A stretch of 64,000 bases of DNA, taken from positions 2,848,001 to 2,912,000 of the forward strand of contig CM000151.3 in NCBI GenBank assembly GCA_000004695.1, in the 5' to 3' direction. Positions 3,916 to 12,140 of the stretch are shown one piece after another; the first letter of the stretch is position 1, and the number at the start of each line of letters is the position of its first letter. The notes beneath the pieces were generated by a model. That model ran no database searches and was not told where the DNA came from. It was given only the letters and a program-made list of their open reading frames with translations. Source of the stretch: Dictyostelium discoideum. Its lineage: Eukaryota. Made by a program: the position numbers and the translations under genes.

Positions 3916-5363
<1,448 letters not shown>

Positions 5364-7296: not shown

Positions 7297-8263
7297 AAAA
7301 TAAATTAAATAAAAGTATTACAAAATAATGAAAGATTATTACCATTTCATACAGCATTATTAAATACATCAACTTATAGTGGTATGGTTAAAAAATTTGA
7401 AGTATTCAAAAGATTAATACCGAAATATGGTGCAATTATATTAAATAAAGATATGAGTAAAGTTGTATTGGTTAAAGAACAATGGTGGGGATGGGGTTTT
7501 CCAAAAGGTAAAGGTAAAGAGGGTGAAACTGAAACTCAAAGTGCATCAAGAGAAGTATTTGAAGAGATTGGTTTCGACATTTCATCTTATATAAAAAAAG
7601 ATGCATTCATTCAAAAAGAAAGTCATGGTGTAATTAAAAAATTTTTCATTTGTGTTGGTGTTGATGAATTAACTGATTTTGAAACTCATACAAGATATGA
7701 AATTAGTGTAATGTATTAAATAATTAAATATAATAATATTAATAAATAAAATATTAATATATGTATATTTATTTAAATATAGAGAATTAAATGGCATTTA
7801 ATTGATGATTTACCATTATTTCATAGTAGACAATCACACCAATTTGCAGCTATTATATCATATGTTAAACCATTAATAGCATGGATCGATAATAAAAGAA
7901 TGGAGAATGGTTTAGAACCAATTCATAGAACCAATTCCAATAATAATGAAGGTGGTAATATAGGTGATTTCTCATTTAAATACAAATGGACACCACAAAA
8001 AAACAAAATTAAAAATACTCAACAACATCATCAACAACAAATTCCAGAGGATGATAACGAAATCATTTTAAGTAATGAAGTTGAAAGTATTCAATTATCA
8101 CAGTATATCGATGAGTTTAAATCATTTCTAAATGAGAAACAATCATTATCAACTAGTGGTAATAATACTCCTAAATTAAATTCAAATTTATCTAAGAAAA
8201 TTGAACAACAACAACAGCAACAACAACAACAACATCCACAACAACAAAATCAAAATCAATATC

Positions 8264-8351
<88 letters not shown>

Positions 8352-8847
8352 GCAACAACATCAACAACAAAATCAATATCAGCAACATCAGCATCCACAA
8401 CACAGCAACAACAATAACAACAATAACAATCAACAATTATATCTTCCAAGCTATCAACAACAACAAAATATTCAAAATCAACAAAATTTTCAAAATCAAT
8501 TATTAAACTTTAATAATCAACAACAAAACTTTCAAAATCAATTACGACAACAAAACTTTCAGAACCAACAACAAAACTATCACCAAAATCAGCCAAACTT
8601 TCAAAACCAACAACAACAACCAAACTTTCAAAACCAACAACAACTAAACTTTCAAAACCAACAACAGCAACAAAACTTTCAGAATCAAATGCAAAACTTT
8701 CAAAACCAACAACAAAACTTCCAAAACCAACAACAAAACTTTCAAAACCAAAATCAACAACAACAACAAAACTTCCAAAATCAACAACAAAATTTTCAAA
8801 ACCAACAAAGATTTATGCACCAACAACAATATCAACAATATAAATAA
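6787..8847 (+). CDS. dcp2: mRNA-decapping enzyme subunit 2 (Dcp2) homolog: Box A plus Nudix hydrolase, long Q/N-rich C-terminus; 3 exons (6787..7147; 7355..7707, or alternatively from 7315; 7783..8847)
   Basis: Exon 1 carries a Box A-like motif (MSIEEAYWYYIDIHL, compare Dcp2 QIEEAHWFYEDF) after a poly-N N-terminus. The exon-1 donor is GTAAGT at 7148. Exon 2 carries the Nudix box GWGFPKGKGKEGETETQSASREVFEEIGF. Upstream of it is FEVFKRLIPKYGAIILNKD, matching yeast Dcp2 FNEYKKRVPVRGAIILNED. The exon-2 donor is GTAATG at 7708 and the acceptor tatag at 7781-7782. Exon 3 begins RIKWHLIDDLPLF, matching the Dcp2 KIEWHLLMDLP region, and is in frame with the 7900 ORF. The intron-1 acceptor is ambiguous: acag at 7353-7354 or aaag at 7313-7314. 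Both are in frame. Confidence 0.8.
8213..8350. repeat. (CAA)n microsatellite encoding polyQ inside dcp2 exon 3
   Basis: Long near-perfect CAA run, followed by 13 imperfect copies of a repeat encoding QQQNFQNQ. Confidence 0.9.
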
Positions 8848-9156: not shown

Positions 9157-9799
9157 TTAGTTTCCACCTTTATCTTCACACCATTCATTTTCTTTTCTAA
9201 TTTGTTCTTCTTCTTCTGGGGTAAAATCATTTTTAATATTGAAAATCTTTCTAATTTCTTCTGGGGTTTTGCCTCTAATCATGTTGGCAACTGTTTTACA
9301 GGTAACATCTAATAATGGTTTAATATCCAAATAGTTGGCAGCCAAGATTAATTCGAATAAGGTTGGTTGATCGACTTTACAGAAATCTCTATCATATGGT
9401 GGGATATCATCTAATCTCTTTTCATCCTTTTTATCGTCACCTTGTGGTGATGGATGTTGGTGGTGGTGTCTGCAATAGTCAAGAACTTTTTCTAAAATAG
9501 TGGAAGTAACATTTGGTAATGGAATTGGGGCGTCTGATTCACCGATATCTAAAATAAATAAATAAAAAAAAAGAATATTAATATTTTTCCGAATTATTTT
9601 TTATTTTTGTGTGTGTGTGTTTATTTGATTTTTTATTTTTATTTTTATTTTTATTTTTTTATTTTTATTTTATTTATTTATTTTTTTTGTTTAATTACAT
9701 ACCTTCAATCATATTCTTGATTGTAACAGACATACAAGCGATTTCTTTTTCAATCTCAAAGACTTTTTCATCTGATGATTCTAATTTTACTAATGACAT
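9157..9799 (-). CDS. fpaB: SCF ubiquitin-ligase subunit Skp1 (162 aa); 2 exons (9703..9799 and 9157..9548)
   Basis: Exon 1 encodes [32 protein letters not shown] and ends in phase 1 at a GTATGT donor. Exon 2 follows a ttttag acceptor and begins [23 protein letters not shown]. The C-terminus [27 protein letters not shown] is identical to Dictyostelium Skp1 and includes the Pro143 hydroxylation/glycosylation site. Residue 39 is Ala. As I recall, that corresponds to Skp1B (fpaB) rather than Skp1A, which has Ser39. The A/B assignment is the weaker part of this call. Confidence 0.9.
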
Positions 9800-10532
9800 T
9801 ATATTTTAAAAAGTGTGTATTGCTTTATTGGGACACTGGAATTTATATGAAAGATTTTTTTCAAATTGAAATTATTTTTAAAAAATAAAAAAAAAACTTT
9901 TTTTTAAAAAAAAATTAATTTATTTTTAAAAAAAAAAAAAAAAAATTAAAAAATAGAAAAAAAATAGAAAAAAAAAAAAAAAAAAAAGTTAGGCATCATC
10001 GTCATAAAATATCTTTAAAAAAATTTCAACGAAATTTTTTCTTCATTTCCTCTAGTTTATTTTCTTTTAATTTTCTTTTTAACATTAGTAATTAAAAATC
10101 CAATGACATTTTATTTCTTTGTTTTAAAAAAAAACAATTAAAAAAAAAAAATAACTAAATGAGATAAAAAAAAAAAAAAAAAAGTATAAAAAATAATTAA
10201 ATCAACAGATAAAGATTTAAAAATAAAAAAATTTGAAAATAGAAAAAAAAATAGAAATGTAAAAAAAAGGAAAAAAACCAAAAAAAAAAATAAAGTAAAT
10301 ATTTATCTTCACAAATATCTTAAAATTTTATTTGTTCCTAAATTAGAAAAAAAAATAAAAAAATAAAAAATATAATAAAATAAAATAAAACAAAATAAAA
10401 AATTTTAAAAAAAAATTATAAATTGACCACATCAAAATAATAAAAATGCAAAAAAGAAATTACAAAAAAAAAAAAAGAAAAAGTAAAAAAATAAAAAAAG
10501 AAACCCTAATTATTTGTAATATTATAAAAAAT

Positions 10533-10590
10533 TGCTAAATGGGGAAATGTTTGGAATGTGATCTCAATTTTCACATTATTTTTTTATTTT
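10533..10590 (+). other. Conserved hairpin element, copy 1 (possible small ncRNA or regulatory element)
   Basis: Sequence ctaaATGGgGAAAtGTtTGGAATGTGAtctcaatttTCACATT followed by a T run. There is a 7-bp inverted repeat AATGTGA/TCACATT with a 9-nt loop. A homologous copy lies at 11165-11225. Confidence 0.3.
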
Positions 10591-11164
10591 TTTTTTCTAA
10601 TCATTTTTTAATTATAAATATGTTATGACCTCAATAATTTTCATTCAATAACATTTCTACAATTTTAAGAATAATCTTAAATCTCAGAATTAATTTTATT
10701 ATGGCAGTTCATAATTCAAGCCATATCATTAATAGCAATTAGTTATTACCAAAATCTCAAAAAATGATGTTTTTTTTTTTTATTTAATTAAATGATCATC
10801 AAAAATAATTAAAAAATAAAAGATTAGTATTTAAAATAGTATTTTATTTTAAAGAATTCTAAAACCATCATTATTTGTATTTAGATCTAATAATTTTATT
10901 TTTCCAAACGAAGGGTCATTTTATTTATTTCAAAAAAAAAAAAAAAAAAAGTGGACAAATAAAATAATCATCAAAAAAAAAAAATAAAAAAAAAATAAAA
11001 AAAAAATAAAAATGGACAAATAAAACAAAGATATAAAAAAATAAAATAAAAAATAAAACAAAAAACAAAAAAAAAAAGTAAAAAATATAAAAAGACACCC
11101 CCCAATCATATCCAATATATTATTATTTTTACTAAATATATTTTTTTTTTTTTTTTTTAAAAAA

Positions 11165-11225
11165 ATACTAAAATGGACGAAAGTGTGGAATGTGTGTGAT
11201 GCTCAGTTTTCACACAATTTTTTAT
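11165..11225 (+). other. Conserved hairpin element, copy 2
   Basis: Sequence ctaaaATGGacGAAAgtGTGGAATGTGTGTGAtgctcagtttTCACACAATT followed by a T run. It has the same leader as copy 1 plus a 10-bp stem with one bulge and a 10-nt loop. Confidence 0.3.
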
Positions 11226-11895
11226 TATTATTTTTTTTTATTGTTTTTTTTTTTTTTTTTATTATTTTTTATTTTTTTTTTTTTTATTATTTTTTTTTAA
11301 TTTTTATTATTTTTTTTTAATTTTATTTTTTTTTTATTTTTTTTATATTTTTTTTTAAATTTATTTTTTTAATTTTTATTTTTGTTTTTTTTTTATTATT
11401 AAATAATTTTTTTTTTTTCATTTTGGTTATTATTTTGGGTAAACTCATTCAAATTTATAACTCTTAATTTTATTATTTAATAATTATTTTTATAACAATA
11501 TTGTTCATTCAGAAGATAATGTAAGGATAAAAATAGAAAATTAGTATTTTTTTTATTTTTTTTTATTTTTTTTATTTATTTTTGGTGTTTCCATTTTGGG
11601 TTCGAACGAAAAAGGTTTTTTTTGAATTAAAATTTTTTTTAATTTTTTTTTTTTTTTTTAATTTTGGAATGGATAACAATCGCACGAGTGGCTATTTTTA
11701 ACCCATTTTTTTAAAATTTTTATAAAATATCCTATTAGAAAAAAAAAAAAAAAAAAAAATTCAAAAAAAAAAAATTTATCTTCTCATTTTTTTTTTTTTT
11801 AAAATTTTTCTTTTTTATTTTTATAGCTATTAATTATATATTATTTTTTTTTTTATATAAAAAAAACTTTATTAAAAAAAAAAAAAAAAACTAAA

Positions 11896-12140
11896 ATGTC
11901 ACCAAGACCAGAGAGTATCAAGAAAGTAATGGATGTATTAGGTGATTTTAATCCATCAGAAGATAAAATTAAGAAAACATTGGGTATAGACGAAGATGAA
12001 ATGAGGATGATTAACGAAGAGAAAAACACCGTAATTTCACCAGCAAAAGATAGAATCCCAATAAATAGAAAATTAACTAAAAAAGCTCAAGATACATTAG
12101 GAATTAATTTATCAAAAGAAAAAGTAAATTATAAATTTTT

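Follow-up and report, generated by a model that had tools for sequence, protein, structure and literature searches.

A conserved candidate regulatory element and its duplicate in the divergent spacer between fpaB and DDB_G0273387 of Dictyostelium discoideum

Two related hairpin-containing elements, c1 and c2, lie inside the 2.1-kb divergent spacer between fpaB (Skp1) and DDB_G0273387 on D. discoideum chromosome 2. We hold with moderate confidence that c2 is promoter or cis-regulatory DNA, for which we infer promoter activity and factor binding, and that c1 is a decaying duplicate linked to it by gene conversion. All positions refer to the window, which is the whole 64,000-nt stretch of DNA that was analysed.

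Position and relatedness of the two copies

Skp1 is encoded on the minus strand, and its ATG is at 9799. The neighbouring gene, DDB_G0273387/DDB_G0273613, is on the plus strand and starts at 11896. The original prediction placed the elements in the region downstream of Skp1. Given this orientation of Skp1, the region is upstream of the gene, not downstream. Position 39 of the Skp1 product is alanine, which we take to be the mark of Skp1B (fpaB). The Rad51 ORFs of the window match rad51-1, which is located at chr2 2,861,364-2,862,597 (PMC7919456 supplement), so that the window corresponds to chr2 ~2,848,001-2,912,000 of D. discoideum AX4. The region holding c1 and c2 is also the point at which the plus strand switches from A-rich to T-rich. 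c2 is ~720 bp from the ATG of the neighbouring gene and 1.37 kb from that of Skp1, distances that are far for a core promoter and count against a promoter reading. The same spacer contains a second internal duplication, 9985-10075 and 10300-10345.

Local alignment with a composition-aware score was applied to both strands of the 64-kb window. c1 and c2 were reciprocal best matches with a score of 35.5, compared with 24 for the next match and a background of 12.7 +/- 2.7. The leader pattern occurs twice in the window vs 0.07 expected. The similarity is therefore due to homology rather than to chance in AT-rich DNA, as had been proposed. The perfect inverted repeats, the 9-10-nt loops and the T runs were likewise confirmed, with a 7-bp stem in each AX4 copy. 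Homology reaches ~70-100 bp further upstream, taking in a C-rich box (ACCCTAAT in c1, CCCCCCAATCAT in c2) and an A-rich tract, and ends shortly past the T runs. The two related stretches are ~130 bp long, and the upstream part of c2 has 38 bases more than that of c1. A larger tandem duplication unit was rejected, as the similarity of the c1 and c2 flanks was not above that of shuffled sequences. The features of both copies are listed in the table.

Table. Sequence features of c1, c2 and the DNA between them, in window coordinates
Feature	Position	Strand	Remarks
c1 C-rich box ACCCTAAT	10503-10510	+	degenerate counterpart of the c2 CCAAT box; no intact CCAAT
c1 TATA-like box TATTATAAAAAA	10520-10531	+	lacks the 38 bases (T run) found here in c2
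c1	~10534-10584		GCTAAATGGGGAAATGTTTGGAATGTGATCTCAATTTTCACATTATTTTTTT
c1 leader GCTAAATGGGGAAATGTTTGG	10534-10554	+	ATG at 10539
c1 inverted repeat AATGTGA / TCACATT, loop TCTCAATTT	10555-10577	+	arms 10555-10561 and 10571-10577, 9-nt loop; 7 bp in AX4, 3-4 bp in three other genomes
T-rich tract after c1 (T7, then T10)	10580-10597	+	
Segment X, between c1 and c2	10596-10935		340 bp; no other copy
c2 CCAAT boxes	11102-11116	+	CCAATCATA at 11102-11110; CCAAT at 11112-11116
c2 TATA-like box CTAAATATAT, then T17, A7	11132-11165	+	CTAAATATAT identical in D. firmibasis
c2	~11166-11224		ACTAAAATGGACGAAAGTGTGGAATGTGTGTGATGCTCAGTTTTCACACAATTTTTT
c2 leader TACTAAAATGGACGAAAGTGTGGAATG	11166-11192	+	ATGGACGAAA at 11173-11182 identical in D. 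firmibasis; TGGAATGTG at 11186-11194 not conserved
Mini-ORF MDESVECV*	11173-11199	+	stop is the TGA inside GTGATGC
c2 inverted repeat TGTGTGA / TCACACA, loop TGCTCAGTTT	11193-11216	+	arms 11193-11199 and 11210-11216, 10-nt loop; perfect stem in AX4 only
T6 after c2	11218-11223	+	followed by ~190 bp of T-rich DNA

Conservation and history of the copies

The AX4 spacer was compared with the spacers of D. discoideum L124 and L131, D. cf. discoideum L130, D. citrinum L128, D. dimigraforme L129, D. firmibasis L123 and D. purpureum L125. Related spacers were reached via homologues of the neighbouring gene; a search with Skp1 yielded distant species only. Synteny with Skp1 is limited to the D. discoideum-group species. 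The neighbouring protein is identical to that of AX4 at 96% of positions in D. citrinum, 93% in D. dimigraforme, 92% in D. firmibasis and 68% in D. purpureum.

D. firmibasis has one orthologue of the element, in which CCAATCATA, CTAAATATATTT, ATGGACGAAA and GTGATGCTCA...TCAC are kept in the same order with similar spacing. Four conserved blocks of 9-12 identical bases each are shared by D. discoideum and D. firmibasis. GTGATGCTCA, within the c2 inverted repeat, is identical in the two species. So are CCAATCATA and CTAAATATATTT, with the CCAAT box preceding the TATA-like box in both, which is evidence from sequence only. The CCAAT box is ~71-73 nt and the TATA-like box 41-43 nt before ATGGACGAAA. 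Aligned with D. firmibasis, the AX4 c2 core gave a z of 8.5 and its promoter-like part a z of 4.0, while the intron interiors of both flanking genes were unalignable (z 1.9 for the Skp1 intron and 1.1 for that of the neighbour). Since c2 aligns where these introns fail, its conservation between the two species exceeds the neutral level. The original prediction is supported to the extent that one copy, c2, shows such conservation; selection on the hairpin itself found no support.

c1 and the 340-bp segment X were found in D. discoideum and D. cf. discoideum only, and the c1 leader is confined to the same two. D. citrinum, D. dimigraforme and D. firmibasis have no c1. The c1 leader differs from both c2 and D. 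firmibasis at 4/10 positions of ATGGACGAAA. With D. firmibasis as outgroup, 5/6 informative changes fell on c1, four of them within ATGGACGAAA, and 1/6 fell on c2, which suggests relaxed constraint on c1. By these alignments c2 is the older, ancestral copy and c1 is a young, lineage-specific duplicate that is decaying.

The c2 core itself has a patchy distribution. D. citrinum has neither leader nor hairpin and retains only ATCCAATATATTA and the TATA-like stretch. D. dimigraforme keeps only AAGTGTGTGAT and lacks both the 3′ arm and the ATG. The CCAATC(A/G)TA of c2 persists in both D. firmibasis and D. dimigraforme. D. dimigraforme carries CCAATCGTA and D. citrinum TCCAATATATTA, so that CCAAT motifs have outlasted the leader and the hairpin in these two species. 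As D. citrinum, the closest sister species, has no c2 core, whatever role c2 has must be dispensable. The T run that follows CTAAATATAT in c2 differs in length among the compared genomes, and the stretch formed by the TATA-like box, T run and A run resembles the stretch directly before the ATG of the neighbouring gene (family D16). Spacers of D. purpureum, P. violaceum, T. lacteum and C. fasciculata gave no significant match; the best (z 2.8) was on the wrong strand in a GT-rich tract.

Within a genome the two copies tend to share the same state. Both read TCAC-A in AX4 and TCAC-C in L124 and L130. Both L130 copies carry ATTTCACC and have lost TGGAATGTG, which is also absent from D. firmibasis. 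These parallel states suggest gene conversion or palindrome-templated repair, and differences between c1 and c2 therefore cannot be counted as independent events.

Hairpin structure and searches for known RNAs

The original prediction held that loop and stem had covaried, the stem being lengthened while pairing was kept, and that this pointed to selection on structure. The window contains 20 perfect stems with a length of 7 bp or more, two or more G-C pairs and loops of 4-12 nt, vs 21.8 +/- 3.5 in shuffled sequences. The 7-bp stems are perfect in AX4 only. Counting contiguous Watson-Crick pairs outward from the loop, c2 has 7 in AX4 and 4 each in L124, L131 and L130, and c1 has 7 in AX4, 4 in L124, 4 in L131 and 3 in L130. 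In c2 of these three other genomes a T·C mismatch adjoins the GTGA/TCAC core and is followed by two more pairs. In AX4, both copies share a derived base that closes the mismatch beside the core. The D. firmibasis hairpin has 6 pairs (AGTGAT/ATCACT). Folding energies gave z values against shuffles of -1.2 to -1.6 in AX4 and -1.1 to +0.6 in the other genomes, and RNAalifold returned -3.0 kcal/mol with 0 compensatory pairs. Selection on the hairpin is not borne out by these results.

Nor is the covariation. In the aligned core, TGTGA-T(G)CTCA(A/G)TTT-TCACA, c2 adds TGTG to the 5′ arm and CA(A) to the 3′ arm. Both additions lie in (TG)n/(CA)n dinucleotide tracts and therefore amount to one compensated length change. 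When the 7-pair helix was placed on a register-correct alignment of eight Dictyostelium copies, 84% of cells were paired vs 74% in shuffles. Three helix pairs change on both sides among the eight copies, mostly tracking the single split between c1 and c2. Pair 6-25, which adjoins the core, is unpaired in 5/8 copies. The outer two pairs are A-U and A-U in c1, and G-C and U-A in c2. Given the excess of paired cells and the differing outer pairs, a weak hairpin with one mismatch could still be favoured, although the alignment makes no positive argument for it. A structured cis element acting at the DNA level is possible. Judged by the sister genomes, the perfect hairpins of AX4 are probably late, strain-specific completions of a short palindrome rather than a conserved RNA structure.

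Known RNA classes were searched in several ways. Rfam 15 gave no relevant match in the window at the gathering score and none at c1, c2 or the D. firmibasis copy with E up to 10, and a tRNA scan found none. Class I RNAs are recognized by an 11-nt motif, CCTTACAGCAA, adjacent to a ~6-bp terminal stem, with a covariance-model score of at least 15-25 bits (PMC7919456). A Class I covariance model (R1) was built from 29 published sequences (PMC7919456 supplement). The best score of R1 in the window was 12.9 bits (E 0.33), and there was no match at c1 or c2. CTTACAGC with up to one mismatch is absent from 9800-11900, and the curated Class I genes include none near chr2 2.86 Mb.

The promoter boxes of Class I genes were considered as well. 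The DUSE, [TA][CA]CCA[TC]AA, is located ~60-75 nt upstream of the RNA, and in its MEME matrix CCA is invariant, with A7 at 0.99 and A8 at 0.95 (PMC7919456). The c1 box ACCCTAAT lacks CCA, the c2 box CCCCAATC fails at positions 6-8, and TGCCAATC of D. firmibasis fails too. For the looser pattern WCCCAWAA the window has fewer matches than expected (9 vs 19). The TGTG box reads AAATGTG at all 25 MEME sites and, in the Class I genes compared here, is 57-61 nt from the DUSE (PMC7919456). c1 and c2 carry GAATGTG in its place, 51 and 88 nt from the C-rich box, and neither D. firmibasis nor either L130 copy has this motif. The suggested comparison with Class I ncRNA thus gave no Class I match, DUSE or TGTG box at either copy.

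Other candidates were rejected. The stems of 4-7 bp are too short for a microRNA precursor, an imperfect hairpin in which ~20 bp or more are needed to give a ~21-nt RNA. The supplementary file of the paper on DrnB and miRNA biogenesis (PMC6161686) held no match to c1 or c2, papers on miRNAs and small RNAs held no matching sequence, and nothing was found in the literature on the motif or on the flanking gene identifiers. A U6- or U7-like RNA lacks ACAGAGA here and has an Sm-like site in D. firmibasis only. A protein-coding relic or a spliced first exon was set aside, as the c1 and c2 frames are not conserved; the candidate donors GTGTGG and GTGAGA would have phases that differ between the two species. 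A transposon or MITE was dismissed because there are just two adjacent copies and none elsewhere in 180 kb.

It had also been suggested that the elements might belong to a family. A sequence profile (R2) was built from seven copies of the D. discoideum group and run on both strands of 180 kb of dictyostelid DNA with E up to 10. R2 found two copies per D. discoideum-group genome and no more. A further 800 kb, comprising 400 kb of D. discoideum chromosome 1 and 400 kb of D. firmibasis, held no copy with leader plus hairpin. A metagenome scan returned at least 120 chance matches, none with the leader and none an AT-rich homologue, the pattern being too loose. The family did not materialize in the DNA covered, a small portion of the genome.

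Candidate function and known systems

In our preferred reading, c2 would be an element of a control region shared by fpaB on the minus strand and DDB_G0273387 on the plus strand. It would consist of two CCAAT boxes, ~30 bp, the TATA-like CTAAATATAT, oligo-dT plus oligo-dA, and the two 10-mers ATGGACGAAA and GTGATGCTCA. The short dyad GTGA-N10-TCAC would simply be part of the second 10-mer. c2 would act as DNA, presumably by binding a factor such as the CCAAT-binding complex, and transcription may start a few bases before ATGGACGAAA. c1 is a copy that arose together with segment X in the D. discoideum / D. cf. discoideum lineage, lost its intact CCAAT and T run and is now drifting, and it probably still swaps short patches with c2 by gene conversion. 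Further points temper the promoter reading. CCAATCA is only mildly enriched in the window as a whole (16 vs 9.8 expected), and to our knowledge CCAAT boxes are not an established Dictyostelium promoter element.

Some of the same evidence can be read as a small RNA gene. c2 would then encode a non-coding RNA of ~58 nt in D. discoideum and ~75 nt in D. firmibasis with c1 as its pseudogene, which we regard as distinctly unlikely. Such an RNA would be transcribed from its own upstream box and TATA-like box, with a start just before AUGGACGAAA and an end in a U run past the short 3′ hairpin. The geometry is suitable: in both species the upstream box is ~65 nt and the TATA-like box ~33 nt before the presumed start, the 5′ 10-mer and hairpin core are conserved, and a T run comes within 2-14 nt after the hairpin. 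The pair beside the core is U-A in AX4 and A-U in D. firmibasis, and the size is typical for Dictyostelium small RNAs (PMC7919456). However, the upstream box departs from the DUSE at matrix positions 6-8, Rfam and Class I features are lacking, folding is no better than in shuffles, the stem is broken in 3/4 D. discoideum-group genomes, and R2 found no further family members in 180 kb. T runs abound throughout this DNA, D. citrinum has lost the element, and the 3′ arm is missing in D. dimigraforme. The fuller proposal of an undescribed ~58-75-nt RNA, made from c2 in part of the D. discoideum group by a promoter of CCAAT/TATA type rather than DUSE type, with AUGGACGAAA at its 5′ end, a 3′ hairpin and a U tail, and with c1 as a young pseudogene kept by conversion, strikes us as very improbable. 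A Pol II transcript whose 5′ end contains the mini-ORF as a uORF of 5-12 codons, possibly the upstream leader of DDB_G0273387, is more doubtful still. The ATG has the context AAAATGG, and the same TGA stop is reached despite indels (MDESVECV*, MNESV* in L130 and MDEKVREFVKPQ* in D. firmibasis), but such an in-frame pattern arises by accident roughly 1 time in 9, and the peptide shows no conservation. D. dimigraforme has lost the ATG, and D. citrinum the entire stretch. The conserved GTAAG at 11520 and TATAG at 11826 suggest that the neighbouring gene has a non-coding exon upstream; a better TATA plus oligo-dT for that exon is found at 11396-11418, however, and the ~190 nt of T-rich DNA downstream of c2 looks like promoter rather than exon.

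It is also conceivable, if unlikely, that neither copy is functional and that the spacer has merely been duplicated. Similarity would then persist via recency, gene conversion and hairpin-templated repair, and the D. firmibasis match would reflect slow chance decay. Hairpins of this class do occur at the chance rate, c1 decays freely, the core is absent from D. citrinum and mostly gone in D. dimigraforme, and the parallel c1/c2 states in AX4 and in L124 and L130 point to conversion, in a spacer with other duplications and large turnover. Against a complete lack of function stand the four blocks of 9-12 bases that survive to D. firmibasis when the introns of both flanking genes cannot be aligned, and the c2 core, which is 98% identical among D. 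discoideum isolates, compared with 87-91% for the adjoining segment X.

With its CCAAT and TATA-like boxes, ATGGACGAAA and GTGATGCTCA, c2 is one unannotated conserved element in the putative fpaB/DDB_G0273387 control region. The spacer documents fast turnover of promoter DNA among very close species. It also illustrates that a tidy pair of seemingly covarying hairpins in AT-rich DNA can be produced by duplication of a local stretch, slippage in dinucleotide tracts and, probably, gene conversion, and that comparison with a few sister genomes suffices to test a claim of hairpin covariation. Beyond this, c1 and c2 look like ordinary, locally duplicated promoter-region DNA, and their wider significance appears small.

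Three kinds of known system resemble parts of this arrangement, apart from the mutational processes that may have shaped it. Like Class I genes, which specify RNAs of 42-65 nt (PMC7919456), c1 and c2 are small units in an AT-rich spacer with a C-rich box, an AATGTG string and a downstream T run. Unlike them, they have neither CCTTACAGCAA nor the GTTGAC/GTCAAC terminal stem. U6-like genes have an upstream element near -60, a TATA box near -30 and a T-run terminator. c2 shares this geometry of upstream box, TATA-like box and T run with such type-3 Pol III or snRNA-type genes, and ATACTAAAATGGACGA loosely resembles the ATACTAAAATTGGAACGA of U6. In contrast to U6-like genes, c2 lacks ACAGAGA and AGC and matches none of the Rfam models for U6, U6atac and U7 with E up to 10; its upstream element is not a DUSE, and the Sm-like AAUUUGUGA of D. 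firmibasis is not kept in D. discoideum.

Completion of short palindromes by template switching or hairpin-templated repair, and homogenization of paralogues by gene conversion, are general mutational mechanisms. The mismatch-closing base shared by both AX4 copies, the slippage-prone (TG)n/(CA)n arms and the parallel deletions in L130 resemble their products, a likeness that involves few sites and assigns the mechanism by analogy. CCAAT boxes and TATA boxes are combined in Pol II promoter modules, and the NF-Y-type CCAAT consensus is CCAATCA. c2 differs from these modules in being far from both annotated ATGs and in having 10-mers and a dyad with no known factor. It resembles them in its CCAATCA and second CCAAT ~60-70 bp before the presumed start, with the TATA-like box ~30 bp on. 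As in Dictyostelium genes, oligo-dT precedes the A-rich start. c2 further shares with CCAAT/TATA modules a place in a bidirectional spacer and a CCAAT core conserved across species, as far as the sequences themselves can tell.

Conserved sequence upstream of DDB_G0273387

The spacer between fpaB and DDB_G0273387 reaches its highest non-coding conservation in two islands, GGAATGGATAACAATCGCACGAGTGGCTATTTTTAACCCATTTTTTT and GTGTTTCCATTTTGGG, the former matching at 82–100% across six genomes. RNAalifold identified neither structure nor covariation in these islands, so that both are best read as probable promoter sequence for DDB_G0273387. In the same region, GTAAG and a T-rich TATAG are present in 5/5 close species. 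Retention of both motifs suggests that the 5'UTR of DDB_G0273387 contains an intron missing from the annotation, with a non-coding exon upstream of it.

Features of the spacer and of equivalent spacers in other species (window positions unless a locus is named)
Feature	Position	Strand	Remark
GGAATGGATAACAATCGCACGAGTGGCTATTTTTAACCCATTTTTTT island	11664-11712		non-coding, spacer
GTGTTTCCATTTTGGG island	11586-11601		non-coding, spacer
GTAAGG	11520		
TATAG, T-rich	11826		cut mark after G
TATTAAATAA + T12, TATA and oligo-dT for the candidate exon	11396-11418		
WCCCAWAA, loose DUSE pattern, 2 matches	11433-11440; 11594-11601	minus	
CCTTACA	11526-11520	minus	75 nt downstream of second WCCCAWAA match
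GGGTTCGAACGA, tRNA B box-like	11597-11608		
Internal duplication, TCA.AAATATCTT.AAAA.TTT...	9985-10075; 10300-10345		second in spacer
GT/CA-rich imperfect palindromes	L125 4563-4625; 4744-4790		D. purpureum
GT/CA-rich imperfect palindrome	L001 5190-5130		
GT/CA-rich imperfect palindrome	L123 ~5333-5360		D. firmibasis

Duplicated and palindromic elements

The paralogous hairpin-bearing elements c1 and c2 were compared in the window (AX4), L124, L130 (D. cf. discoideum) and L131, and were found to have strain-specific states in common. Both AX4 copies read TCAC-A, while TCAC-C is found in both copies of L124 and likewise of L130; in L130 the two copies also have ATTTCACC and have lost TGGAATGTG. 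These shared states hint at gene conversion across 630 bp, or at palindrome-templated repair. Among D. discoideum isolates the match over the c2 core is 98%, compared with only 87–93% among D. discoideum-group isolates for the 340-bp segment that follows c1 and separates it from c2 (10596-10935), which has no counterpart in the other species compared or in the rest of the window. D. citrinum and D. firmibasis each carry a single copy of the sequence that forms the second internal duplication. The GT/CA-rich imperfect palindromes of the equivalent spacers are up to ~20 bp long and lack positional homology to c1 and c2; palindromes of this kind seem to have originated repeatedly within the spacer region.

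Comparison with known RNA genes and coding sequence

A Class I RNA gene layout, composed of the second WCCCAWAA match and CCTTACA, was considered and rejected, as the covariance model built from 29 published Class I sequences gave no match and CCTTACA is what the conserved GTAAGG reads on the opposite strand. The GGGTTCGAACGA motif resembles the consensus of a tRNA B box. It is not retained in D. firmibasis, and no tRNA gene was predicted across the whole window. Elsewhere in the window, 100 consecutive N (40075-40174) presumably mark an assembly gap. A long glutamine/asparagine-rich ORF (7900-8847), adjoining the Skp1 3' end, is low-complexity coding sequence typical of Dictyostelium.
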